From the NCBI GenBank assembly GCA_035292885.1, contig DATDPG010000164.1, positions 1,386 through 65,385 of the forward strand: a DNA stretch of 64,000 bases, read 5' to 3'. The notes under the pieces were generated by a model, which searched no databases, was not told the DNA's origin, and worked only from the letters and a program-made list of their open reading frames with translations. This stretch comes from Bdellovibrionota bacterium. Lineage in GTDB: Bacteria; Bdellovibrionota_G; JALEGL01; DATDPG01. Positions 14,697 to 26,253 of the stretch are shown here, in pieces. Numbering within the stretch: position 1 is the stretch's first letter; the number at the start of each line of letters is the position of its first letter. Made by a program: the position numbers and the translations under genes.

Positions 14697-15716
14697 GTGC
14701 TTAAGAATCTTTCAAGACCGGCCGCGTTGTATTCACTCCTGACGCTGATCGCATGTGGCGGCCCGGAACCGCTTCCCCCAAAAACTGGCGACCCGCAAAA
14801 TCAGGCGGCTCTTGGAACCACACCCTGTGCCGCCGGCTATCAAGGAACGGATACCGACGGCGATGAAATTCCCGACCAATGCGAACAGCTCTTGGGCACC
14901 GATCCGAACAATCCGGACTGCAATGGGAACGGTATACCGGACGGCATGGATAACCCGATCGATTGCAGCCACAAACCCGCGGATGAGTGCGACGTCGCCT
15001 GCCAGGACAATAAGAATCGGATGTACAATGAATTGGCGAATTCACTAATGCTGGGTTCTTCAGCTATGGCCAGAAGCGCCCCGGCCGGACATACCGTTTC
15101 GGTAGACAAACAACAAATGGCCTTTGGCCCGCTCAAGAACATCACACACCCAAAATTTCAACCAACTCTAAGAGGGGACTCAAAGTGCGACACCCCCAAC
15201 AACGTATTCTTCCTGGTACAAGGCAAAGTCGACGGAAAGGCCGCGACCATCGAGTTTTGCGGAGATATTGAGACAAGCAAGCTTCCCGGCGTTACGGACG
15301 CAACCGACAAAACAGCGGACCCGTTAGATGGTTCATCGCTCAAACTGTGGAAAATTGGCAATGCTGACGGCAAGAAGTTTGACCCGGGCGCACTGCAGGT
15401 CAATAACATCGATGTCACTCAAACCTTCGATAAACTCAATATCAGTGGGGCCGTCGACCCCTGTTACGGCATAACGAACGACCCAAATTGTTCGGGCAAT
15501 CACATAATTTTTCTAAATCTTCACATGGAACTCTCAAGTAGTTACAAAATAGAGTTCTCAGGAATTTATAAGAACGAGGAAGTGACGGGGAAAACGGAGA
15601 AAATTGTAAAGGATTGGGTCCGAACAGTTGACATGGCCACGAAGGCAGAGGCTTCTTACTCACCGGGATACCTCGGATTCTGGGTAAATGGACCCACAAG
15701 CGCCCCTACTTACTAG
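14697..15716 (+). CDS. secreted lipoprotein with thrombospondin-type-3-like Ca-binding repeats
   Basis: Lipobox LIACGG. DTDGDEIPD / DPNNPDCNGNGIPDGMDNPIDC Asp-rich repeats. Paralogous N-terminus to the 20562 gene. Confidence 0.5.
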   Translation: MLKNLSRPAALYSLLTLIACGGPEPLPPKTGDPQNQAALGTTPCAAGYQGTDTDGDEIPDQCEQLLGTDPNNPDCNGNGIPDGMDNPIDCSHKPADECDVACQDNKNRMYNELANSLMLGSSAMARSAPAGHTVSVDKQQMAFGPLKNITHPKFQPTLRGDSKCDTPNNVFFLVQGKVDGKAATIEFCGDIETSKLPGVTDATDKTADPLDGSSLKLWKIGNADGKKFDPGALQVNNIDVTQTFDKLNISGAVDPCYGITNDPNCSGNHIIFLNLHMELSSSYKIEFSGIYKNEEVTGKTEKIVKDWVRTVDMATKAEASYSPGYLGFWVNGPTSAPTY

Positions 15717-16011: not shown

Positions 16012-16233
16012 GTGGCCGAGAAGAAATTTGAAAGCGCCCTCTCCGAGTTGGAATCCATCGTCTCCAAGCTCGAATCCGAAGAACTTCCGCTGGAGGACTC
16101 TTTGGAGCTCTTCGAAAAAGGGATCAAGCTCTCCCGCCTCTGCTCCAAGAAACTGGCCGAAGCCGAAAAGAAGGTCGACGCCCTGGTGGCGGAGCTGGCG
16201 AAAGATCAACCTCAAGAAACGCAAAGTAGCTAG
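16012..16233 (+). CDS. xseB: exodeoxyribonuclease VII small subunit
   Basis: GTG start. FESALSELESIVSKLESEELPLEDSLELFEKGIKL matches XseB. Confidence 0.8.
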   Translation: MAEKKFESALSELESIVSKLESEELPLEDSLELFEKGIKLSRLCSKKLAEAEKKVDALVAELAKDQPQETQSS

Positions 16234-16399
16234 TGTCCCGGGTCCGAAATAGATTGATAACGAAGGACGTCGATGCGGCCGGATGGCAAGGCGCGACGAC
16301 GATGGCGTACTTGCAAAGCTGTGCGTCGAGGAGGAGCAACACAGCCAGCCGGGATGCAGCGGCGGCCGAGTATCAAGATATTTCGGACCCGGGACACTA
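16231..16399. repeat. intergenic inverted-repeat element (about 30-bp near-perfect terminal inverted repeats around a 108-bp core); MITE-like or RNA structure
   Basis: ctagtgtcccgggtccgaaatagattgata (16230-16260) versus tatcaagatatttcggacccgggacactaa (16369-16398). The arms abut the xseB stop and the ispA GTG. Confidence 0.6.
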
Positions 16400-16402
16400 A
16401 CT

Positions 16403-17284
16403 GTGGATCTCGAAAAATATCTCGAAACCTGCCGCCGTTCCGTCGAGGGGAGACTCGAAGAATATTTCTCCACCTCTGCAGTGGCCCCCCGTCTCGTCGA
16501 GGCGATGAAATACAGTCTCTTTGCGGGGGGCAAACGTATCCGTCCGGCTCTCGCTCTTGCTGCTTGTGAAGCCGTGGGCGGAAAGAGTGACGCCGCGCTT
16601 CCCGTCGCCTGCGCACTCGAAATGATTCATACCTATTCCCTCATTCACGATGATCTGCCGACCATGGACAACGACGACTTAAGGCGGGGAAGACCGACAA
16701 ACCACAAAGTGTTTGGAGAAGGTCTCGCGATTCTGGCCGGTGACGCTTTGTTGACCGAAGCGTTTAATCTCCTGGCCGATCCCTCGTGGAACATCCCAGC
16801 CGAATGCCGCATCGACATCGTCGGAATTGTCGCCGAAGGCTCCGGCGCCAACGGCATGGTGGGAGGCCAGGTCCTCGATCTTCAGTTTGAAGGGAAAGAC
16901 GTCGGCGAAAAGGAATTGGAGCAAATTCACCGGAACAAGACCGGCAAGCTGCTTCGTGCAGCTGTTTTAGCCGGCGGCCGAGCGGGCGGTGCCGAGGGAG
17001 AATTCTTCGACAGCCTCAAACGATACGGTGAGGCGATCGGTCTGGCGTTTCAGATCGCCGACGACGTCCTCGACGTGACGGCCACAACCAAGCAGCTCGG
17101 CAAAGGGGCGGCCAAGGACCAGGACAAAAAGAAGGCCACGTACCCCGCGATCCTCGGCCTGGATGAATCCCGCCGCCGCGCCGCGAATCTGCTCGAGGAC
17201 TCACTTTTGGCTCTCAAACCTTTAGGTAAGCGCGCTGAAGCGTTAACCGCCCTCGCCCGTTACATCATCGAGCGGCGGTCGTAG
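16403..17284 (+). CDS. ispA: polyprenyl (farnesyl/geranylgeranyl) diphosphate synthase
   Basis: First DDxxD (LIHDDLPTMDNDDLRRGRPT) and second (FQIADDVLD) Asp-rich motifs. GTG start at 16403. Confidence 0.85.
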   Translation: MDLEKYLETCRRSVEGRLEEYFSTSAVAPRLVEAMKYSLFAGGKRIRPALALAACEAVGGKSDAALPVACALEMIHTYSLIHDDLPTMDNDDLRRGRPTNHKVFGEGLAILAGDALLTEAFNLLADPSWNIPAECRIDIVGIVAEGSGANGMVGGQVLDLQFEGKDVGEKELEQIHRNKTGKLLRAAVLAGGRAGGAEGEFFDSLKRYGEAIGLAFQIADDVLDVTATTKQLGKGAAKDQDKKKATYPAILGLDESRRRAANLLEDSLLALKPLGKRAEALTALARYIIERRS

Positions 17285-17322
17285 CCATTCACACTTTCTG
17301 GGACCAGAGATATGATCGGTTA

Positions 17323-17751
17323 ATGCTCGACCTAGTCGCCCGAATACTGAAGAACGACCGCACCGTCGTATTTGCCTATCTTTTTGGCTCAAGGGCAAAG
17401 CAATACCAGCATTCTCAAAGCGATTGGGATATCGCGGTATTTCTTGATCCGCCACCGAAAGACGGACCGCACGGAAAGAAATATTTGGACCTTTACCTGA
17501 AAATTTCCAAAGAACTGCGCACGGACTCCGTTGATGTCGTCATTTTGAACTGTGCCACGCCATCCTTGGCAAAGGCGGCACTAACCGGAAAGCGACTTTT
17601 CTGCAGGAACACGGCCAAATATGTTCGATATTTTGTCCAGCTCATGCACGACCTAGACGATCAGATGTACCTAGTGGACGCATACGTTCCGGCGCTTAAG
17701 AAGCGCCTTAACGAAAGGACGGGTCGTGGTCGACCGAGCACTCGTCACTGA
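17323..17751 (+). CDS. MntA-type nucleotidyltransferase antitoxin (type VII TA)
   Basis: GS..G......D.D NTase motif (FGSRAKQYQHSQSDWDIAVF). Confidence 0.8.
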   Translation: MLDLVARILKNDRTVVFAYLFGSRAKQYQHSQSDWDIAVFLDPPPKDGPHGKKYLDLYLKISKELRTDSVDVVILNCATPSLAKAALTGKRLFCRNTAKYVRYFVQLMHDLDDQMYLVDAYVPALKKRLNERTGRGRPSTRH

Positions 17752-18139
17752 ACGTCTTAAGTTGATCGACGATTATCTCCGGCTCGCGGAGCGCTTATCA
17801 CGAAACGCTCGAAAACGATTTATTGAGAATCCGGAGATCCATATGCTGGCGGAAAGAGCACTGCATCTTGCGCTTGAAGCAATGCTCGACGTATCTAGTC
17901 ATATCGTGTCGGCCCGGAATCTGGGGCCTCCGCAGAGCTATGGAGACGTGATCTTTCGTCTGGCTGAAGGGGGCGTGATTCCTGAGCGTTTGGCACATCA
18001 GTTACGGCCATGGGTAGGCATGCGCAATGTGCTCGTTCATGGATACTCAAAACTAGATCACGGCCAGGTCCATCAAGCGATTCGAAGGGATCTGTCTTCG
18101 GTACGGCGCTTTTGCGCGGCAGTCTCCAAATTGCTTTGA
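17726..18139 (+). CDS. HepT-like (DUF86) toxin
   Basis: R-x4-H-x-Y-like motif (MRNVLVHGY). Overlaps mntA by 26 nt. Stop overlaps the tlyA TTG. Confidence 0.8.
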   Translation: MVDRALVTERLKLIDDYLRLAERLSRNARKRFIENPEIHMLAERALHLALEAMLDVSSHIVSARNLGPPQSYGDVIFRLAEGGVIPERLAHQLRPWVGMRNVLVHGYSKLDHGQVHQAIRRDLSSVRRFCAAVSKLL

Positions 18140-18897
18140 GAAAAAAACGCCTCGACCAGCTCGTCCACGAACGAGGTCTCGCAGAAACGCAAGTGAAGGC
18201 GCAGGCGCTCATTATGGCGGGGGAAATCATCGTCAACGAAACCATCGCCTCCAAGGCCGGGCAACTTGTGCCGTCCGACGCAGAGATCGCTTTGCGTTTT
18301 CCCGGACCCAAATATGTCAGCCGAGGAGGCGTCAAACTTGCGGGTGCGCTCGATCACTTCAAGATCGATCTAAGCGGTTGGCATTGCCTCGATGTGGGAG
18401 CCTCGACCGGGGGATTTACCGACTGCCTTTTGCAACGAGGTGCCGCACATGTCTGTACGATCGACGTGGGAAGAGGCCAGCTCGATCCCAAGATTCGAAA
18501 CCATCCTCAAGTGACGTGGAAAGAATCGTTTCACGTGAATGAACTGACGCCGGAAACATTCGGGAGATTATTCGAACTCGCCGCCGTGGACGTCTCGTTC
18601 ATCACCCTCAAAAAAGTCCTTCGCCATGTTCTGCCCTGCCTGAAATCGGGCGGAACCCTCCTCGCGCTCATTAAGCCGCAGTTTGAGGCGCAAAAAAGAG
18701 ACGCCGTAAAGGGAGTCCTTCGGGATGAAACGAAGCGACAGGCCATTTTGGAAAAGATGAAGGAATACGCCGTAACGGACCTCGGGCTTCACGATGTGAC
18801 TCTCACCGATTCGGTTCTGCCGGGCCCCAAGGGGAACCGGGAGGCATTTCTTTGCGCTGAATGGAGAATCAAAGGTCGTGATATACTGAATTCGTGA
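18136..18897 (+). CDS. tlyA: TlyA-family rRNA 2'-O-methyltransferase
   Basis: S4-like N-terminus then SRGGVKL, DVGASTGGFTD, DVGRGQL motifs. TTG start overlapping the hepT stop. Confidence 0.85.
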   Translation: MRKKRLDQLVHERGLAETQVKAQALIMAGEIIVNETIASKAGQLVPSDAEIALRFPGPKYVSRGGVKLAGALDHFKIDLSGWHCLDVGASTGGFTDCLLQRGAAHVCTIDVGRGQLDPKIRNHPQVTWKESFHVNELTPETFGRLFELAAVDVSFITLKKVLRHVLPCLKSGGTLLALIKPQFEAQKRDAVKGVLRDETKRQAILEKMKEYAVTDLGLHDVTLTDSVLPGPKGNREAFLCAEWRIKGRDILNS

Positions 18898-19100
18898 AAT
18901 CGACGAAGGTCCTGGGCAGGCGGTCGGGAGAACTTGAAAATTCACCTGAGGCCGCGTCTCAGTGGCTGGCCACGGTAGCCGCTCTGCGAAAGGGAAAGGG
19001 AATCTGCCCCCGGGGCCTCTATCGGTTCAAAAGTTTCGATGAGGCGGATGAATGGATGATCGAGATGATGGCTCGCGAGTCTCTCGGGTCCCTACAATAG
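18894..19100 (+). CDS. small ORF translationally coupled to tlyA (GTGA overlap), possible partner of the downstream NTase
   Basis: 68-aa ORF. GTG overlaps the tlyA stop. Overlaps the NTase start by 49 nt. No recognisable motifs. Confidence 0.2.
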   Translation: MKSTKVLGRRSGELENSPEAASQWLATVAALRKGKGICPRGLYRFKSFDEADEWMIEMMARESLGSLQ

Positions 19101-19546
19101 ACGATCTCGTCCGCCTTTGCCGCCACCTAAACGAACAGAACGTGGAGTACGTCGTTATCGGTGGGTTCGCCGTGATTCACCACGGATATCTCCGGGCGAC
19201 AGCCGACATCGACCTGTTGGTTCAGAAGAAACAGGCCAACGTGGAAAAGATCAAAACGGCGATGGGTTACTTGGAAGACCAGGCTGCCCGAGATCTACTT
19301 CCGGACGATCTGTCAAAATATACGGTTGTGCGTGTGGCGGACGAGATCGTCGTGGATCTCATGGCGAAAGCTTGCGGTCATTCCTTTGAGGATTTACGCA
19401 GTCAAATCGAGGAGGTTGAATTACAGGGAGTCCGCATCCCGTACCTTACGGCAGCCGGACTCTTGAAAACCAAAGCCGGCATTCGGCCAAAGGATCAGCA
19501 GGATCGCGCTTATCTGGAGCGACTGCTCAAGTCGAAACCGAAATAG
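19052..19546 (+). CDS. nucleotidyltransferase-fold protein (Pol-beta superfamily), hypothetical
   Basis: VIGGFAVIHHGYLRATADIDLLV fits the hG[GS]...Dh[DE]h NTase signature. Confidence 0.5.
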   Translation: MDDRDDGSRVSRVPTIDDLVRLCRHLNEQNVEYVVIGGFAVIHHGYLRATADIDLLVQKKQANVEKIKTAMGYLEDQAARDLLPDDLSKYTVVRVADEIVVDLMAKACGHSFEDLRSQIEEVELQGVRIPYLTAAGLLKTKAGIRPKDQQDRAYLERLLKSKPK

Positions 19547-19560
19547 GATTCGTTAAGATT

Positions 19561-19989
19561 TCACCTTTTCGTGAGCGTTCGAACCGTCTTCATGAACGCC
19601 GGATAGTGCCTAAGGGCCGTCTTGGCTCCGGTGAACACCTTCCCGGGAGTAAGGTCGTCGATCAGGTGCGCAATGGCGTCCCGAATTCGGGCGGATGAAG
19701 CGAGGCCCGAGGCCAGCTTGGTCGATAGGACACCCCGGCGACCGAGCACCAGGAATGCATCCGGATACGTGGGCACGGTTAGTTGGTAATTTTTCTTCAG
19801 GATAATGCAGGCGACATCCACCGCCCATTCCACGAGGCGTTCGATGTGACGTTCGGTCGCCAACTGATCCATTCGGTTTCGCCGATACGCTCGCTCCCCC
19901 TTCCGGAGAATTTCTTCCATCTCCAGTAACGTGCCACGCATAAAGTCGAGCTTTCGGACGATGATCTGTTTGTCGAGTGCCGTCAGCAT
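19561..19989 (-). CDS. HepT-like (DUF86) toxin
   Basis: IRDAIAHLID motif region, 142 aa. Overlaps the upstream mntA by 7 nt. Confidence 0.8.
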   Translation of the reverse strand: MLTALDKQIIVRKLDFMRGTLLEMEEILRKGERAYRRNRMDQLATERHIERLVEWAVDVACIILKKNYQLTVPTYPDAFLVLGRRGVLSTKLASGLASSARIRDAIAHLIDDLTPGKVFTGAKTALRHYPAFMKTVRTLTKR

Positions 19990-20432
19990 GTGAGGCGTTC
20001 GTCAAGGAAGTCGTCCAGTAATTCCCGTCGCAGGCCGTCGAATTTTTCGTTGTCCATGAACTGGCGGCTGGCGAGGGAGAAGAAGCGGTCGAATTCGCCG
20101 GTCTTTCGTTCGTAGACGAGTCGGCCCTGGCAGGCGGCGAATCGGGCGATGGGGTCGGCGTGGTCCAGGAACATGACGTCAGCGTCGTCGCGGCCGAGGA
20201 GGCTTTTGAGTTCGGTGATGATTTTCCCGTGGTCGAATTTGAACTGGAAAAGAACGGCGATGTCGAGGTCGGGTTCGGGGCCTTGAAGGCCGGTGACGGC
20301 GGAGCCGAACAGGAGGACGAGGCGGGGGCGTCGGCGTTGGATCCAGGGGGAGAGCTTGCGGCGCAGTTGATGGGCTCGCACGGGAGTGCACAGTACCATG
20401 GGGGTTGGCGGGGTCAGTTTTCGCCGCGGCAT
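19983..20432 (-). CDS. MntA-type nucleotidyltransferase antitoxin
   Basis: LLFGSAVTG....PDLDIAVLF NTase motif. Confidence 0.8.
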   Translation of the reverse strand: MPRRKLTPPTPMVLCTPVRAHQLRRKLSPWIQRRRPRLVLLFGSAVTGLQGPEPDLDIAVLFQFKFDHGKIITELKSLLGRDDADVMFLDHADPIARFAACQGRLVYERKTGEFDRFFSLASRQFMDNEKFDGLRRELLDDFLDERLTC

Positions 20433-20485
20433 TTTTCGGGCAGCGGTTCCCCGATGCCGAAAAGCCGCTCATTCAACCGATCGAA

Positions 20486-20522
20486 CACAGCCAATAAAAT
20501 ATAATAATATTAAATATTTAAC
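20486..20522. promoter_or_regulatory. AT-rich island with taataatattaaata motif in a divergent promoter region
   Basis: aataaaatataataatattaaatatttaa in an otherwise GC-rich context. A near-copy is at 31101-31125. Confidence 0.3.
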
Positions 20523-20561
20523 GCTGGTCTGCCTGGCACGGATGTTGGGATACTCCTGGGT

Positions 20562-21863
20562 ATGAAGATGAAATTACAGCCGGAGGACGCCATGATTCGC
20601 CGATCGATTTCAGCACTTCAAGCAGCTGGATTGTCAATACTGCTTGTTCTCGGTGGATGTGGAAAAAATGGCGTTACGCCGACCCCCATCAACCCAAATG
20701 GCACCGGCAACAGCCTTGGCGAACAAATTACTCAAACGCTCTGTGCGGAAACGGGCGATGTCGATTCAGATGGTGATGGCATCTGCGATACCGACGAAGC
20801 GAATGACCCTACCCTAGGGCCCGATTGTGTTGACAACCCGGATTGCAACAACAACGAAACACCCGACGGCGATGAACCTTCTTGGTGGGTCAAGAATAGG
20901 AAGTACGTCTGGATGGCTTCGGCATTGGGTGCTGGTTCGGTTTACTTAGTAAAGGCGTGCGATGGAAACGGCGACGGCTGTAACTTCCTATCGAATGTGG
21001 CTGGAAAAACGGGCGACGACGTCAATAACCAGGCCGGTTGGACAACCTCCGTCATCGGGAATCTGACTGGCGGCTATGCCTATGTGAAGCTCGACAACAT
21101 GCAAGGTCGATCCACATTCAAGCTTGGATTTACGGCTAAATCCGACAAAAGGGTCGTACTCGGCGGCATTGACCTCGGCTACGACTTTGGGGGATATATC
21201 GCCGGCTTCCCGCAATTCTCTAACGGGGCCTCCTTCCAAAAGGACGCAACCGGCGCGGCTAAAGTGGACCTCCCCTTGGCGGGAGTATTCTCCGACAACC
21301 TGAAAACCAACCATCCTCTGCGTGAGTTCGGAGTGCCCTGCGTGTCAGGCTCGTCATCTCCAGGGAATGTGTTTGAAAGCATCGAACAAAAAATAAAGGA
21401 TCTCGGCTATTCAGGTTATCCCGTCATTCTCTCTTTCGTCGCCCAGGCCGACGGGAACCAAGACTGTTGGTTTGCCAAGAGCCTCCTGCCCGAATCGGTC
21501 TTCAACGCGGCGAAGCCGAGCACTCTAACACTTAAATTTCCGCCTCTCGGCAAAACCGCCGAGGCCACTTTCTCACTTCACTCCGAACACCCCGAAGTCG
21601 GAGCGGTCATCGATTCGTTCGATTTCGTAGCAAAATGGGTGGGCAAGGTCGGTGGGCCTGATCTTACGAACCCCGCTTCTGGCCTCCCAACAAACCCTGT
21701 AGAGAACTACGCCGACGGCTACCAATACTGGCCCAAGCTTGAAAAAGCACTCGGATTAAATTCCCCGCAGGTGTCGTGTTCGAATATGACTTGTTCCATA
21801 AAGAATCTCTTTTCTCCCCTTCAAAATCTTTACGCCGTATTCGAAATGACAAGGTCTCAGTAG
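20562..21863 (+). CDS. secreted lipoprotein with Asp-rich Ca-binding (TSP3-like) repeats, paralog of the 14697 gene
   Basis: Lipobox VLGGCG. DVDSDGDGICDTDEANDP, DNPDCNNNETPDGDE. Confidence 0.5.
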   Translation: MKMKLQPEDAMIRRSISALQAAGLSILLVLGGCGKNGVTPTPINPNGTGNSLGEQITQTLCAETGDVDSDGDGICDTDEANDPTLGPDCVDNPDCNNNETPDGDEPSWWVKNRKYVWMASALGAGSVYLVKACDGNGDGCNFLSNVAGKTGDDVNNQAGWTTSVIGNLTGGYAYVKLDNMQGRSTFKLGFTAKSDKRVVLGGIDLGYDFGGYIAGFPQFSNGASFQKDATGAAKVDLPLAGVFSDNLKTNHPLREFGVPCVSGSSSPGNVFESIEQKIKDLGYSGYPVILSFVAQADGNQDCWFAKSLLPESVFNAAKPSTLTLKFPPLGKTAEATFSLHSEHPEVGAVIDSFDFVAKWVGKVGGPDLTNPASGLPTNPVENYADGYQYWPKLEKALGLNSPQVSCSNMTCSIKNLFSPLQNLYAVFEMTRSQ

Positions 21864-22129
21864 CGCAAAAACGACGCGCCCAATACAAACCCATTCGTCT
21901 TATAACTTTGCTCCGGAGCGACGCGGCCAAAAATTTCGGGATGATGGCTCAAGAAAGCGTATTGCCTCTGGACCTCGCGGAAGCATTGGCTCCCTCGGTC
22001 GGATTGCAAAATCGAATTGTTCATGAATACGGCCTTCTCGACGCCCGAAATGTTTTCGCTGGCACCGAAAAAGCCCTTCAATTGTTTCCTAAATATACCG
22101 CGTCGATTCTGGGGCTCATGAAAAACTGA
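21776..22129 (+). CDS. HepT-like DUF86 domain protein, probably truncated/remnant
   Basis: Exact Rx4HxY motif (QNRIVHEYGLLD). The N-terminal part overlaps the lipoprotein 3' end, so the likely true product is under 100 aa. No MNT partner. Confidence 0.45.
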   Translation: MFEYDLFHKESLFSPSKSLRRIRNDKVSVAQKRRAQYKPIRLITLLRSDAAKNFGMMAQESVLPLDLAEALAPSVGLQNRIVHEYGLLDARNVFAGTEKALQLFPKYTASILGLMKN

Positions 22130-22688
22130 AAACCCGCGAGAGTGGCGGAAGTGCATCGGAATCGAACCGACCAACACTCGCTCGGCGGGCGTTCGCTGGT
22201 TTTGAAGACCAGGAAGGACACCAGTCCCCAGCCACTTCCGTCGCCGGAATCATTACCCTTTTTTGGGTTGCCTGAAAATAGGTCGTTCTGAAGTGTCCAT
22301 TTTGGTGTCTGCTTTTTGTCGGAAATGGCCCATTCCAGATCCGGGAACTCACCCTTGGTCGACAATCTCGTACCGCGCAAATAGCGGAGGCACGGTCCAC
22401 CAGAACACCATCATGATCGCGCTTTCGGGCACACCCGCCTTCACCCATGATATTTGTGCCGCCGAACTCGGATCCACTTTCCCTTCTTGTCCCGTTCCCA
22501 AAGCCTTCCTTTCCGTTCATCTTCCAAAGCTCCTTCAAATTCTTCATCAAATCCGCATTATTCAGAACGTCGAACGTTTCGGAAAAAGCTTCATAATCTT
22601 CCATCGGTAAAAGGGCTCCGACGGCACGACCGTCCTTCGTCAAAATATACCCCCGCCCCTCCTCTTCCATAGCGCGCACAAGCGTCAA
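22116..22688 (-). CDS. Phd/YefM-family antitoxin domain (N-terminal ~80 aa) in an ORF that reads on through the tRNA-Sec gene
   Basis: GYILTKDGRAVGALLPMEDYEAFSETFDVLNNADLMKNLKE matches the Phd/YefM fold. The C-terminal ~110 aa are low-complexity and overlap selC. No cognate toxin downstream. Confidence 0.55.
   Translation of the reverse strand: MTLVRAMEEEGRGYILTKDGRAVGALLPMEDYEAFSETFDVLNNADLMKNLKELWKMNGKEGFGNGTRRESGSEFGGTNIMGEGGCARKRDHDGVLVDRASAICAVRDCRPRVSSRIWNGPFPTKSRHQNGHFRTTYFQATQKRVMIPATEVAGDWCPSWSSKPANARRASVGRFDSDALPPLSRVFSFS
22143..22239 (-). tRNA. selC: tRNA-Sec (selenocysteine, anticodon UCA), CCA encoded
   Basis: Minus-strand sequence GGAAGTGG-CT-GGGGAC/TGGT/GTCCTT-C-CTGGT/CUUCAAA/ACCAG-long variable arm-GTCGG/TTCGATT/CCGAT-GCACTTCC-G-CCA. 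8/5-type acceptor/T geometry, 6-bp D stem with 4-nt loop, long variable arm. Architecture parallels E. coli selC. Confidence 0.7.
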
Positions 22689-22694
22689 CGGCCG

Positions 22695-23183
22695 TTATTG
22701 CTGCGGCTTCTCGGCGCCTTTCGCCAAGGCTTCGTTCGCTTCCGGATATCGCAGATCGTCCCCGCTATACCATGCCAGACGCCCGCGCGAAGTAATTGAA
22801 TACGGCCGGTCTCCGCCCGGCGCCTTATACATGAACGCGTTTCCCCACGGGTCTTTGGGAACCGAAATGCGTCCGATATATCCGTCTTGATAATATTTCT
22901 GCGGCCGCGGCGGAACGCGCGGTTGCCTCACCAGCGCATCGAGTCCCTGTTCGGTTGTCGGATAAAAGCCGTTGTCCTGCTTATATGACTCGAGCGCGAC
23001 GCTGAGCCGTTGCAATTGATCGCGCACCATGAGGCGGCGGAGACGATCGTCCTGAGACATGTAAAAGGGATTGAAACGAGCCCAGGGCACAATAAAGATT
23101 CCGGCTAACACAAGCGCGATTCCGAGAAGACCGATTCCGACGTAGGCTTTCTTGATCCGATTCATAACGGCGGAGGGTAGCAC
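22695..23183 (-). CDS. GspG-like (type II secretion pseudopilin domain) protein lacking a canonical prepilin leader
   Basis: DPWGNAFMY motif typical of T2SS_G. The N-terminal TM has no G-F-T-L-I-E class III signal. Confidence 0.55.
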   Translation of the reverse strand: MLPSAVMNRIKKAYVGIGLLGIALVLAGIFIVPWARFNPFYMSQDDRLRRLMVRDQLQRLSVALESYKQDNGFYPTTEQGLDALVRQPRVPPRPQKYYQDGYIGRISVPKDPWGNAFMYKAPGGDRPYSITSRGRLAWYSGDDLRYPEANEALAKGAEKPQQ

Positions 23184-23272
23184 CCAAGGCTCTGCTCCTC
23201 AAGCCTCCTGACGTCGGGCCAGGAACCGTAAGCATTTGATCGAAGGCCTCAATTGGATTAGGGTACACGGCC

Positions 23273-24424
23273 GTGATCGGGTTCGACCTCACCGAAGAAC
23301 AGCAACAGCTTCAACAACTTGCGCGTGACTTCGCTCAAAAGGAAATGGCCCCGAAGGCGCCCCATTACGATCAAACCGGCGAGTTTCCCAAAGAGATTCT
23401 CAAGAAGGCCTGGGAAGTCGGCCTGATGAATCACCAAATTCCCACGGAATACGGCGGACCGGGCCTCAAGTGTCTGGACGGTTGCCTGATTGCCGAGGAA
23501 ACCGGCGCGGCCTGCACGGGAATCGCCACGGCGATGGAAGCCAACATGTTGTCCGAAGCTCCGGTGATCGTCGGCGGCAACGACGAACAGAAAAAACGGT
23601 TTCTCACGCCGATGACGGAAGAGTTTAAGCTGGCGGCATACTGTGTCACCGAGCCGGCCGCCGGGTCGGACGTCCAGGGCATCAAGACAACGGCCAAGAA
23701 AGCCGGGAACGACTATGTGATCAACGGTGAAAAGATGTGGATCACTTCAGCGTCGGTGGCCTCGTGGTATTTCGTCCTCGCGTACACAGACCCCTCCAAG
23801 GGGTACAAGGGGATGTCGACATTTCTCGTCCCCGGCGAGACCGACGGCATCGTCGTCGGGAAAAAAGAAAAGAACATGGGACAGCGTTGTTCCGACACGC
23901 GAGGAATCACGTTCACCAACGTCAAAGTGAGCGAGAAAAATCGGGTGGGGAACGAAGGCGACGGATTCAAGATCGCGATGGCGGCGTTCGATCACAGCCG
24001 TCCTATTGTCGCCTCCGCGGCGGTGGGGTTGGCCCGTTCGGCCATGGAGCACGCCATCCGGTATGCCGGGGAGCGGGAGACATTCGGCGTGCCGATCGCC
24101 AAGCATCAGGCCGTCGCTTTCATGATCGCGGACATGGCCAAGGACATTGAGGCGGCGAGACTCCTCACATGGAAAGCCGCATGGACGATCGATCAGGGCC
24201 AGCGCAACACCCTCTTTGCCGCCTATGCAAAGTCTTTCGCCGCGGACACTGCGATGCGAGTGGCGACCGATGCCGTTCAAGTTTTCGGCGGCTACGGATT
24301 CAACACGGAATATCCGGTGGAAAAACTGATGCGGGACGCGAAGATCTTTCAGATTTACGAAGGAACGAGCCAGATTCAGCGGTTGATCATCGCAAAGGAA
24401 ATATTTGAGCGGAGGAAATCATGA
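23273..24424 (+). CDS. acyl-CoA dehydrogenase (short/medium-chain type)
   Basis: ACAD N/M/C domains, catalytic-region [16 protein letters not shown]. Confidence 0.9.
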
Positions 24425-25977: not shown

Positions 25978-26253
25978 ATGCCGCAACTGGTAACGGTCAC
26001 AAAAGCGAAACAACGGCTGCTCGAACTAGCACGAAGGAACCAAGAACTCGGAGAGTCCTTCATCCTTCTCAAAAATGGAAATCCCGTGAGCGCGCTATTG
26101 CCGTTTGAGGAATATGAGGCGTTGCTGGAAACGCTCGATATCCTCGAAACAGAACCGGATATTTTGGCCAAGTTACGGGCGGCGGAGAGGGAGGTTGCCG
26201 CCGGTAGGTACACGGTCTGGAAAGGCCGACCGCAAAGGCGTAAGAAGCAATAA
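25978..26253 (+). CDS. Phd/YefM-family antitoxin (orphan)
   Basis: ILLKNGNPVSALLPFEEYEALLETLDIL; 91 aa; no toxin gene follows (nadA is next). Confidence 0.7.
   Translation: MPQLVTVTKAKQRLLELARRNQELGESFILLKNGNPVSALLPFEEYEALLETLDILETEPDILAKLRAAEREVAAGRYTVWKGRPQRRKKQ

Follow-up and report, generated by a model that had tools for sequence, protein, structure and literature searches.

Toxin-antitoxin (TA) genes that cluster beside the 3′ end of a tRNA gene raise the question of whether they entered the chromosome together, as one element, or piecemeal. The case considered here lies within a 64-kb stretch of DNA (the window) from an uncultured Bdellovibrionota bacterium, where an earlier note interpreted the interval 17.3–22.7 kb as a decayed integrative island at the tRNA-Sec gene, selC. 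The selC-linked pathogenicity islands of Enterobacteriaceae are an example of such tRNA-gene-associated integrative genomic islands. The features of the locus (Table 1) probably represent something else, namely separate TA cassettes lodged in the gaps of a conserved Bdellovibrionota gene cluster, combined with a lineage-specific rearrangement between selC and the lipoprotein gene lipoB.

Table 1. Features of the TA-containing region and its borders (window coordinates).
Feature	Position	Strand	Description
ispA (farnesyl-diphosphate synthase)	16404..17284	+	polyprenyl_synt domain; left border of insertion 1
Sigma-70-like promoter match	17288..17316	+	TTCACA-17-TATGAT, 10/12 matches; in 38-nt ispA-mntA1 spacer
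MntA1, minimal nucleotidyltransferase antitoxin	17323-17751	+	GSX10DXD motif (GSRAKQYQHSQSDWD)
HepT1, HEPN RNase toxin	17726-18139	+	complete Rx4HxY motif, RNVLVHGY
tlyA (rRNA 2′-O-methyltransferase)	18136-18897	+	FtsJ and S4 domains (Pfam); backbone, divides insertion 1 from insertion 2
Small ORF (68 aa), candidate partner/antitoxin of third NTase	18894-19100	+	overlaps third NTase
Third NTase (164 aa), short MenT1/AbiEii-like nucleotidyltransferase, candidate toxin	19052-19546	+	PDB and weak Pfam matches
HepT2, HEPN toxin	19561-19989	-	motif RDAIAHLI
MntA2, MNT antitoxin	19983-20432	-	intact GSX10DXD (GSAVTGLQGPEPDLD); 7-nt overlap with HepT2
lipoB, lipoprotein	20562..21863	+	lipobox LVLGGC; one Asp-rich TSP3-like DxDxDG motif
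HepT remnant, 3′ half only	21920-22129	+	matches only profile positions 59-116 or 59-120 of 120 (Pfam, NCBIfam)
selC (tRNA-Sec), intact	22143-22239	-	ARAGORN; Rfam RF01852, 69.1 bits, model positions 1-91 of 91
Phd/YefM-like remnant	22545-22688	-	Pfam 24.9-25.5 bits vs cut-off 29.8; profile positions 16-61
GspG-like pseudopilin gene	22695..23183	-	Pfam T2SSG 2.6e-25; between selC and acyl-CoA dehydrogenase gene

The backbone of the region is delineated by synteny. The ispA product is 57–67% identical to the IspA proteins of relatives and, read from the GTG start at 16404, equals them in length (293 aa), while that of tlyA, a gene in the middle of the supposed island that the earlier note overlooked, is 100% identical to a 253-aa NCBI protein. 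tlyA orthologs adjoin ispA in all relatives examined; in five of these (L082, L163, L164, L165 and L166; TlyA identity 59–66%) ispA and tlyA abut or overlap, and xseB-ispA-tlyA is followed contiguously by a gene for a lipoprotein of ~370–410 aa (5/5). The Ca-binding-repeat lipoprotein that had been counted as part of the island is itself real, but it belongs to this arrangement: lipoB has positional orthologs 3′ of tlyA in L082, L163, L164 and L165 (E 1e-9 to 1e-13) as well as a paralog, lipoA, at 14697–15716, and is a fast-evolving backbone gene rather than cargo. The interval 18.9–22.1 kb, put forward as a presence/absence block, thus contains lipoB and directly adjoins tlyA, and does not hold as such a unit. 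The accessory status of the TA genes is borne out, as tblastn of ~20 kb around the orthologous locus in each of the five relatives detected no homologs of MntA, HepT or the third NTase; even the closest relatives that offer a usable locus are remote, their TlyA being at most 68% identical. At the corresponding gaps, relatives hold variable cargo: in the tlyA|lipoB gap of L165, an IS200-like Y1 transposase, and, 3′ of lipoB, a truncated Zeta toxin with a DUF4160/DUF2442 pair in L166 and an AAA_14/DUF4143 gene in L163.

Against this background, small TA cassettes would have been inserted independently into three intergenic gaps of a cluster ordered lipoA-orf71-xseB-ispA-tlyA-lipoB. The ispA|tlyA gap (17285–18135) would have received a canonical type VII MntA1/HepT1 pair; the tlyA|lipoB gap (18898–20561), two convergent cassettes consisting of the small ORF with the MenT1-like NTase and of MntA2/HepT2; and the lipoB|selC gap (21864–22142), a HepT gene of which a dead 3′ half would remain. 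No flanking repeats that might reveal the cassettes' route of entry were found as insertion footprints. The HepT1 stop codon (TGA, 18137–18139) overlaps the TTG start of tlyA, and the GTG start of the small ORF overlaps the tlyA stop (GTGA), so that the cassettes flanking tlyA are probably co-transcribed with housekeeping genes. Of the AT-rich promoter islands described by the earlier note, an AT-rich spacer at 20490–20560 stands, but promoter-like sites number two in the region, against 3.6 expected; because this count is not above chance, the sigma-70-like match 5′ of mntA1 is merely suggestive of a promoter.

The two MntA/HepT pairs are real and, as claimed, lie on opposite strands. Their closest known system is type VII HepT/MntA (class I HEPN/MNT), represented by Shewanella oneidensis SO_3166/SO_3165 and Aphanizomenon flos-aquae HEPN/MNT (PDB 7AE9, 5YEP), with which both share an MNT gene that lies 5′ of and overlaps the DUF86/HEPN gene, as well as the GSX10DXD motif of the antitoxin; the Rx4HxY toxin motif is shared by HepT1. 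Pair 1 exceeds both NCBIfam equivalog cut-offs (MntA_antitoxin, 73.3 bits vs 60; HepT_toxin, 105 bits vs 60), with Pfam matches to Polbeta (6e-19) and HepT-like (5e-28) and a HepT1 match to PDB 7AE9 at 1e-11. By analogy with the S. oneidensis proteins (PMC7641770), HepT1 is predicted to act as an Rx4HxY HEPN RNase that cuts mRNA, and MntA1 would silence it by oligo-AMPylating the motif Tyr. Pair 2 departs from this picture. HepT2 (Pfam 1.6e-13; NCBIfam 61.0 bits vs 60) is paired with an antitoxin slightly under its equivalog cut-off (Polbeta 2.5e-10; 55.5 bits vs 60) and, in an alignment to 7AE9, retains the catalytic Arg and His while carrying Ile (ATC, 19660–19662) at the site of the AMP-acceptor Tyr. 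The same codon is present in the independent contig L081. In a tally of 151 homologs that includes HepT1, setting the latter aside leaves 150 representatives, of which 139 have R/H/Y and HepT2 is the sole R/H/I case; with its acceptor Tyr lost, HepT2 may therefore be neutralized without canonical AMPylation, or the pair may be decaying. The third HepT differs further from type VII toxins, being a half-gene with Gln at the catalytic Arg site: the exact Rx4HxY attributed to this otherwise genuine remnant is in fact Qx4HxY (QNRIVHEY; CAA codon at 22007).

Also real are the third NTase-fold ORF and its coupled small upstream ORF, which overlap. The only significant PDB relative of this NTase is MenT1 (8AN4), matched over its full length at 2.7e-5 with the single sequence and 3e-5 with a profile, and the nearest known system is accordingly M. 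tuberculosis MenAT1 (MenA1/MenT1, Rv0078B/Rv0078A) of the DUF1814/AbiEii NTase toxin superfamily. Like MenT1 (196-aa chain), the protein is a short NTase, here encoded downstream of the 68-aa ORF, and MenT1 residues T39, D41, K137, D149 and D152 align with its conserved T50, D52, K141, D148 and D151. Unlike MenT1, it scores 16.6 bits with Pfam AbiEii, below the cut-off, and its top Pfam matches, weak as is that to AbiEii, are DUF6036, DUF2204 and Aminoglyc_resit; PADLOC gives AbiEii at 2.6e-4. The MenT1 link is a candidate one, based on E ~3e-5 and the conserved motif residues. The small ORF, also an NCBI protein (HLG20513), has no match in Pfam, NCBIfam, PADLOC, PHROGs or PDB and no detectable similarity to MenA1; it has its own motif, P[RK]GLYRFKSF[DE]EA, in common with a 75-aa ORF directly upstream of an NTase homolog on an Azospira IncP plasmid. 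Small ORFs or HTH genes lie upstream of plasmid homologs of the NTase, and the 68-aa product is a candidate partner on the basis of two co-occurrences only. From work on MenAT1 (PMC10435456, PMC11375011), the predicted toxin may extend tRNA 3′-CCA ends, and its partner would bind and thereby neutralize it, and may in addition trigger autophosphorylation at Thr50.

That the region adjoins the tRNA-Sec 3′ end is correct. selC faces the TA genes with this end, 13 nt from the HepT remnant, and its junction with lipoB is confirmed by an independent JGI contig, L161, that is 100% identical to window positions 21439–23322. In relatives L167 and L169 (which share their sample or assembly with L164 and L166), selC adjoins an acyl-CoA dehydrogenase-M20 block, which marks the lipoB|selC joint as a lineage-specific rearrangement; selC would thus derive from a second ancestral block (selC…acyl-CoA dehydrogenase-M20-nadA) that was fused to lipoB. 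If a former selC-linked element left a scar, its only possible site is the 280 nt that separate the lipoprotein stop from selC. Possible, if doubtful, is the idea that an MntA/HepT element once resided at the selC 3′ end and was largely removed by a deletion or rearrangement that fused selC to lipoB, the cassettes in the other gaps having arrived separately. This would account for a remnant that lacks its 5′ half and mntA partner and sits so close to the tRNA, for a synteny break that falls exactly at the joint, for the L167 contig stopping 30 nt past the selC 3′ end, as expected of a strain-variable site, and for the differences among relatives on the selC 5′ side; however, neither a piece of an integrase nor an att repeat is left, an attL core and integrase would not fit between the tRNA and a HepT gene that runs toward it and ends 13 nt away, and the remnant could equally be a former solitary cassette. 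Such a history would be a refinement of, and compatible with, separate cassette insertion.

The same is not true of a single integrative island that spanned the whole 17.3–22.7 kb, entered at the selC 3′ end and later lost its integrase and distal att. The locus does resemble tRNA-gene-associated islands in having accessory genes on the selC 3′ side and a selC neighborhood that varies between relatives, and the TA genes lie within 5 kb, are missing from relatives and include every HepT/MntA gene of the window; unlike those islands, it has no contiguous foreign block, its cargo being interleaved in three separate gaps with housekeeping genes (tlyA and lipoB) that are syntenic backbone in five relatives, where ispA-tlyA is a tight, overlapping pair. 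There is no integrase-like ORF in the region, as had been noted, and the tRNA-Sec 3′ end, expected to recur as a direct repeat at a distal att site, has no copy anywhere in the 64 kb. Nor is the composition island-like: GC3 is 0.51–0.56 in pair 1 and 0.69–0.77 in pair 2, against 0.57–0.73 in backbone genes, and the three HepT genes are mutually 21–32% identical and the two MntAs 32%, divergence and unequal GC3 that indicate separate acquisitions. One island is therefore extremely improbable. Scarcely less so is an origin of the cassettes in the ancestor of the clade, followed by differential loss in every relative examined: TA genes are readily lost and the relatives are distant, but at least five independent clean losses would be needed, each restoring the overlapping ispA/tlyA junction, and relatives carry unrelated cargo at the corresponding gaps while the GC3 of the cassettes is unequal to each other and partly to the backbone. 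In the favored reading of separately inserted cassettes, the loci add further members to families already known, and the finding is for the most part unremarkable.

The GspG-like gene lies 5′ of selC, and tblastn found no match to it at the selC loci of L167 or L169. The Phd antitoxin reported to abut selC lies on this 5′ side as well, not on the 3′ side, and is a degraded ORF. Like Phd/YefM type II antitoxins in its central segment, it differs from them in scoring under the Pfam and TIGRFAM cut-offs, in a truncated N-terminus (profile positions 1–15 missing), and in having no stop codon before the tRNA, so that it reads through the tRNA promoter and the tRNA-Sec gene; no toxin partner was found, the other reading frames showing no toxin domain, and a protein cluster look-up returned no NCBI accession among its cluster members. 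The ORF is most likely a pseudogene, related to an orphan Phd gene (Phd2) at 25978–26253 in the window.

The genes surrounding tRNA-Sec (selC), whose order was derived from an ORF listing combined with HMM scans, are listed in the table together with the three gaps that hold accessory genes. tRNA-Sec itself is intact and, by ARAGORN and Rfam, is the sole tRNA in the window; its 3' end (22143) points toward lower coordinates. An earlier note that proposed a decayed integrative island at selC had the gene inventory largely right, with the exception of tlyA, recognizable by its FtsJ and S4 domains, which was overlooked in the middle of the supposed island.

Genes of the selC region and accessory gaps (window coordinates)
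Feature	Coordinates	Strand	Remark
xseB	ends 16233	+	
ispA	16404-17284	+	
Accessory gap 1	17285-18135		between ispA and tlyA
MntA1	17323-17751	+	
HepT1	17726-18139	+	
tlyA	18136-18897	+	housekeeping rRNA methyltransferase; FtsJ and S4 domains
Accessory gap 2	18898-20561		between tlyA and lipoB
68-aa ORF	18894-19100	+	
Third NTase	19052-19546	+	164 aa
HepT2	19561-19989	-	
MntA2	19983-20432	-	
lipoB	20562-21863	+	lipoprotein
Accessory gap 3	21864-22142		between lipoB and selC
Remnant	21920-22129	+	HepT fragment
tRNA-Sec	22143-22239	-	
Phd-like ORF	22545-22688	-	
GspG-like gene	22695-23183	-	
Acyl-CoA dehydrogenase	from 23273	+	

Two independent JGI contigs from the same organism, L081 and L161, match window positions 17039-20166 at 99.94% and 21439-23322 at 100%, respectively; because they reproduce the window, the gene order, including the joint between the lipoprotein gene lipoB and selC, is not a single-assembly artefact. 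Neither was used as a comparison genome: L081, at 99.94% identity, carries no presence/absence information, and L161 was retained solely because it independently supports the joint between lipoB and selC. The reading of L161 as an 89%-identical lipoprotein variant was rejected, since it derives from the same organism and its first 438 nt are chimeric. That stretch (1-438) consists of unrelated gene fragments fused to the 3' part of lipoB and yields a spurious 256-aa lipoprotein "variant" in the protein database.

A TlyA query against GTDB species representatives returned a best match of 51% identity and no close relative that could be used; TlyA relatives of 59-66% identity on long contigs were taken from a large protein collection with contig look-ups, and four long loci (L163-L166) were compared along with metagenome contig L082. 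In all five, xseB-ispA-tlyA is followed by a lipoprotein of ~370-410 aa, with ispA and tlyA abutting or overlapping and with 68-290 nt between tlyA and the lipoprotein gene; the exception is L165, where this gap holds an additional ORF. Further upstream, each of the four long loci has SBP_bac_5, a 126-aa ORF, peptidase M16, Caroten_synth and orf71, and an ORF resembling lipoA, the window's paralog of lipoB, is seen in L164, L165 and L166 and not in L163. The lipoproteins at the lipoB position are fast-evolving yet homologous (E 1e-9 to 1e-13). When the window's proteins were searched with tblastn, the backbone genes were found in the five relatives and no MntA, HepT or third NTase was; nor did these three have a match in 170-odd other tlyA loci (1.9 Mb in total). 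Synteny and tblastn results together indicate that the toxin-antitoxin (TA) genes are accessory and that tlyA and lipoB are backbone genes.

Most likely, separate cassettes were gained within a conserved cluster: an operon-like array would have gained a minimum of three small TA cassettes one by one, plus a remnant, and a rearrangement would have placed selC beside lipoB. Consistent with separate gain, pairwise identity is 21-32% among the three HepTs and 32% between the two MntAs, so that these are not recent duplicates, and the HepT/MntA cassettes probably arrived separately. Repeated loss of ancestral TA cassettes, which would account for relatives that keep the backbone and lack these genes, is in our view highly unlikely. 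Still less credible is a single integrative island at selC. A TA cluster beside a tRNA gene did resemble a decayed island; against this stand the interleaved backbone genes, and one block missing as a unit from relatives is not what the comparison shows, as tlyA and lipoB are syntenic in all five. With every ORF of at least 40 aa across 17.3-23.2 kb accounted for, none is recombinase-like, which bears out the note's own remark that an integrase is lacking and tells against its island. The distal att site was sought as a repeat of the tRNA-Sec 3' end, and the window contains no copy: the 3' 26-mer has no match other than itself when as many as 3 mismatches are allowed, the 15-mer matches at chance level and always on the wrong strand, and blastn-short gives matches of at most 12 nt. 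Composition, which had been cited as island-like, is heterogeneous across the cassettes, with GC3 values of 0.56 (MntA1), 0.51 (HepT1), 0.77 (MntA2), 0.69 (HepT2) and 0.49 (remnant), and 0.57-0.73 in backbone genes.

A narrower version, in which an element once linked to selC left the 280-nt remnant beside selC as a scar, is conceivable though doubtful; nothing else in the region belongs to such an element. Two repeats considered as insertion-flanking, D2 and I5, were judged to be due to chance and both lie within coding sequence. The comparison is of value chiefly as a correction: what looked like an island beside a tRNA gene is, as the relatives show, a set of independent cassettes in a tight operon, and since such cassettes sit among housekeeping genes, tRNA adjacency alone is insufficient for calling an island. 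It is common for TA genes to occupy variable gaps, and the families involved (type VII HepT/MntA, MenT/AbiEii-like NTases and Phd) are already known. Because the cassettes are packed tightly against tlyA, they are probably co-transcribed with it. In the same gaps the relatives have cargo of unrelated kinds: an IS200-like Y1 transposase separates tlyA from lipoB in L165 (10809-11465), and 3' of lipoB L166 (11992-13511) carries a Zeta toxin that is truncated, along with a DUF4160/DUF2442 pair, and L163 (12162-13400) an AAA_14/DUF4143 ATPase gene. Throughout the clade, the spacers around lipoB look like recurrent landing sites or hot spots for insertion.

Downstream of lipoB, the relatives have a sigma-54 activator and next PilZ, CtpB, M23, FtsX and FtsE, and no tRNA is found in their tlyA-lipoB loci. 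An inversion test found the relatives' CtpB-M23-FtsX-FtsE block absent from the window, where the sole match is a 42%-identical sigma-54 activator paralog (107-1537). When the selC locus was sought in relatives with the M20 peptidase as anchor, selC was found to adjoin an acyl-CoA dehydrogenase-M20-nadA block in L167 (same sample as L164) and L169 (same assembly as L166), which implies that selC is ancestrally linked to the right-hand block of the window; two further loci, L168 and L170, were rejected for this comparison as they show no synteny around M20. Judging from these loci, the 280-nt joint between lipoB and selC is a rearrangement specific to the window's lineage. The genes separating selC from the dehydrogenase vary among genomes and the tRNA of L169 is oppositely oriented; the neighbourhood of selC is variable on both sides. 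Just 5' of tRNA-Sec, a -10-like sequence, GGTAAT(G/A)A, is conserved between the window (22240-22262) and L167 (133-155); this sequence, probably the promoter of selC, falls within the read-through portion of the Phd-like ORF. L169 also carries, ~1.7 kb from selC, an 81-aa DUF6036 NTase fragment (1739-1984, 28.1 bits) with no detectable similarity to the window's third NTase.

Two features next to selC are degraded. The third HepT is the 3' half of a gene only, covering profile positions 59-120, and the exact Rx4HxY motif attributed to it reads QNRIVHEY, with Gln (CAA at 22007) at the catalytic Arg site. The supposed Phd antitoxin scores 24.9-25.5 bits against a Pfam cut-off of 29.8, is also below the TIGRFAM cut-off, lacks about the first 15 profile positions and extends through the tRNA promoter and gene; moreover, it sits 5' of selC rather than 3', translation of 22240-22700 in all frames revealed no toxin remnant beside it, and no member of its protein cluster has an NCBI accession. 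This ORF is most likely a pseudogene. An orphan Phd/YefM gene, Phd2 (25978-26253), passes the Pfam cut-off with 35.2 bits; flanked by the M20 peptidase gene and nadA, it is related to the degraded ORF, has no toxin gene beside it and is missing from the same position in L167 and L169.

Both MntA/HepT pairs have the architecture of type VII systems, with mntA upstream of a co-oriented hepT that it overlaps by 26 nt in pair 1 (MntA1/HepT1) and by 7 nt in pair 2 (MntA2/HepT2), a Polbeta domain matched in either MntA, and HEPN/DUF86 (PF01934) scores of 97.6 bits for HepT1 and 50.8 bits for HepT2 against a gathering score of 23.5. The GSX10DXD motif reads GS-RAKQYQHSQS-DWD in MntA1 and is intact in MntA2 (GS-AVTGLQGPEP-DLD). 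Relative to the NCBIfam equivalog cut-off of 60 bits for MntA_antitoxin and HepT_toxin, MntA1 (73.3), HepT1 (105.1) and HepT2 (61.0) lie above, MntA2 (55.5) and the remnant (38.3) below. HepT1, to which an A. flos-aquae HEPN toxin in the PDB is related, has a complete Rx4HxY motif (RNVLVHGY), and pair 1 is by its sequence a type VII module of textbook form. The TGA stop of HepT1 and the TTG start of tlyA overlap, and the 38-nt ispA-mntA1 spacer contains a sigma-70-like match, of a kind that is not above chance in the region.

HepT2 departs from this pattern: its motif, RDAIAHLI, keeps the catalytic Arg and His and has Ile at the position of the AMPylated Tyr (alignment to the solved HEPN toxin 7AE9). 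Compared with type VII HepT/MntA systems, HepT1 carries Rx4HxY, HepT2 has Tyr replaced by Ile and the remnant Arg by Gln. The Ile codon (ATC, 19660-19662) recurs unchanged in L081, an independent contig. When HepT1 was tallied with the 150 best representative homologs, 139 sequences were R/H/Y (138 without HepT1); R/H/I occurs in HepT2 only, against the same 150 homologs, and its nearest relatives (42-46% identity) have the Tyr. The AMPylated Tyr of Rx4HxY has a documented role as the target of MntA, and the S. oneidensis Y104A toxin is still toxic and is neutralised less well (PMC7641770). By analogy, loss of the Tyr would mean that HepT2 is either neutralised in another way or a decaying gene; MntA2/HepT2 may be a natural type VII pair whose toxin is neutralised elsewhere on the protein or by sequestration. 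HepT2 would be a natural test case for whether type VII systems strictly require AMPylation.

The third NTase matches DUF6036, DUF2204, Aminoglyc_resit and AbiEii weakly in Pfam, misses the AbiEii (PF08843) gathering score (16.6 versus 22.5 bits) and reaches only 2.6e-4 with PADLOC AbiEii. Its sole significant PDB match is MenT1 of M. tuberculosis (8AN4), over residues 19-159 of 164 (E 2.7e-5 with the single sequence, 3e-5 with a four-sequence profile); as the Pfam AbiEii cut-off was not reached, it is called MenT1-like rather than filed as a family member. NTase motif I, hG[GS]x9-13Dh[DE]h, is present as IGG-x13-DID (residues 36-54) and aligns to the MenT1 motif holding T39 and D41, and motif IV (K..R...KDxxD) is present as K141-AGI-R145-P-K147-D148-QQ-D151, aligns to K137...QD149RSD152 of MenT1 and is also kept in plasmid homologs. 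Residues T39, D41, K137, D149 and D152 of MenT1 have conserved counterparts in T50, D52, K141, D148 and D151. An AlphaFold2 model from the single sequence (mean pLDDT 43) was unusable, and viral contigs scanned with the NTase profile contained no relatives. Within the coding sequence lies a perfect 16-nt inverted repeat, GACGATCTCGTCCGCC (19100-19115) and GGCGGACGAGATCGTC (19336-19351), not expected by chance in 10 kb.

The start of this NTase is overlapped by the 68-aa ORF, whose own GTG start overlaps the tlyA stop and which has no match in Pfam, NCBIfam, PADLOC, PHROGs or PDB. Among plasmid homologs of the NTase, the best (44% identity) is encoded on pAZI09, an IncP plasmid of Azospira, where a 75-aa ORF immediately upstream has the motif P[RK]GLYRFKSF[DE]EA in common with the 68-aa ORF; their homology was identified from position and pairwise alignment, as the shared motif is too short for tblastn of the 68-aa ORF against plasmids, which gave no match. 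Two actinobacterial homologs have HTH regulator genes directly upstream. TA pairs usually have this build, a short NTase and small, exchangeable partners upstream of it, and the arrangement leads us to read the 68-aa ORF and the NTase as a candidate MenAT1-like module. MenT1, a toxin, acts by extending the 3' ends of tRNAs and is controlled by the 68-aa MenA1 through binding and induced T39 autophosphorylation (PMC10435456, PMC11375011); MenA1 and the 68-aa ORF show no similarity. The two genes may represent an undescribed MenAT-type family in which a new small protein controls a minimal MenT1-like tRNA nucleotidyltransferase, the same pair being found on a conjugative IncP plasmid. This undescribed small partner and the Tyr-less HepT2 with its intact MntA2 are two modest points of note; that the NTase cassette and MntA2/HepT2 are both mechanistic variants, not routine copies, strikes us as possible rather than probable.

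Two further features concern the backbone. lipoA (14697-15716) and lipoB (20562-21863) encode paralogous lipoproteins with Asp-rich TSP3-like motifs on either side of xseB-ispA-tlyA; with positional homologs in three (lipoA) and four (lipoB) relatives, they are 22-34% identical to these, versus 57-84% for neighbouring genes, which marks very rapid divergence, and may be surface proteins under diversifying selection. Finally, the stop of xseB and the start of ispA are separated by an element of 175 nt (16228-16402) that has terminal inverted repeats of 32 nt and folds into a single long hairpin (-97 kcal/mol, z = -10.2). Present in one copy in the window and apparently missing in relatives, in which xseB, judged by gene calls only, adjoins ispA directly or overlaps it, the element resembles a MITE- or REP-like insertion within the xseB-ispA-tlyA operon.
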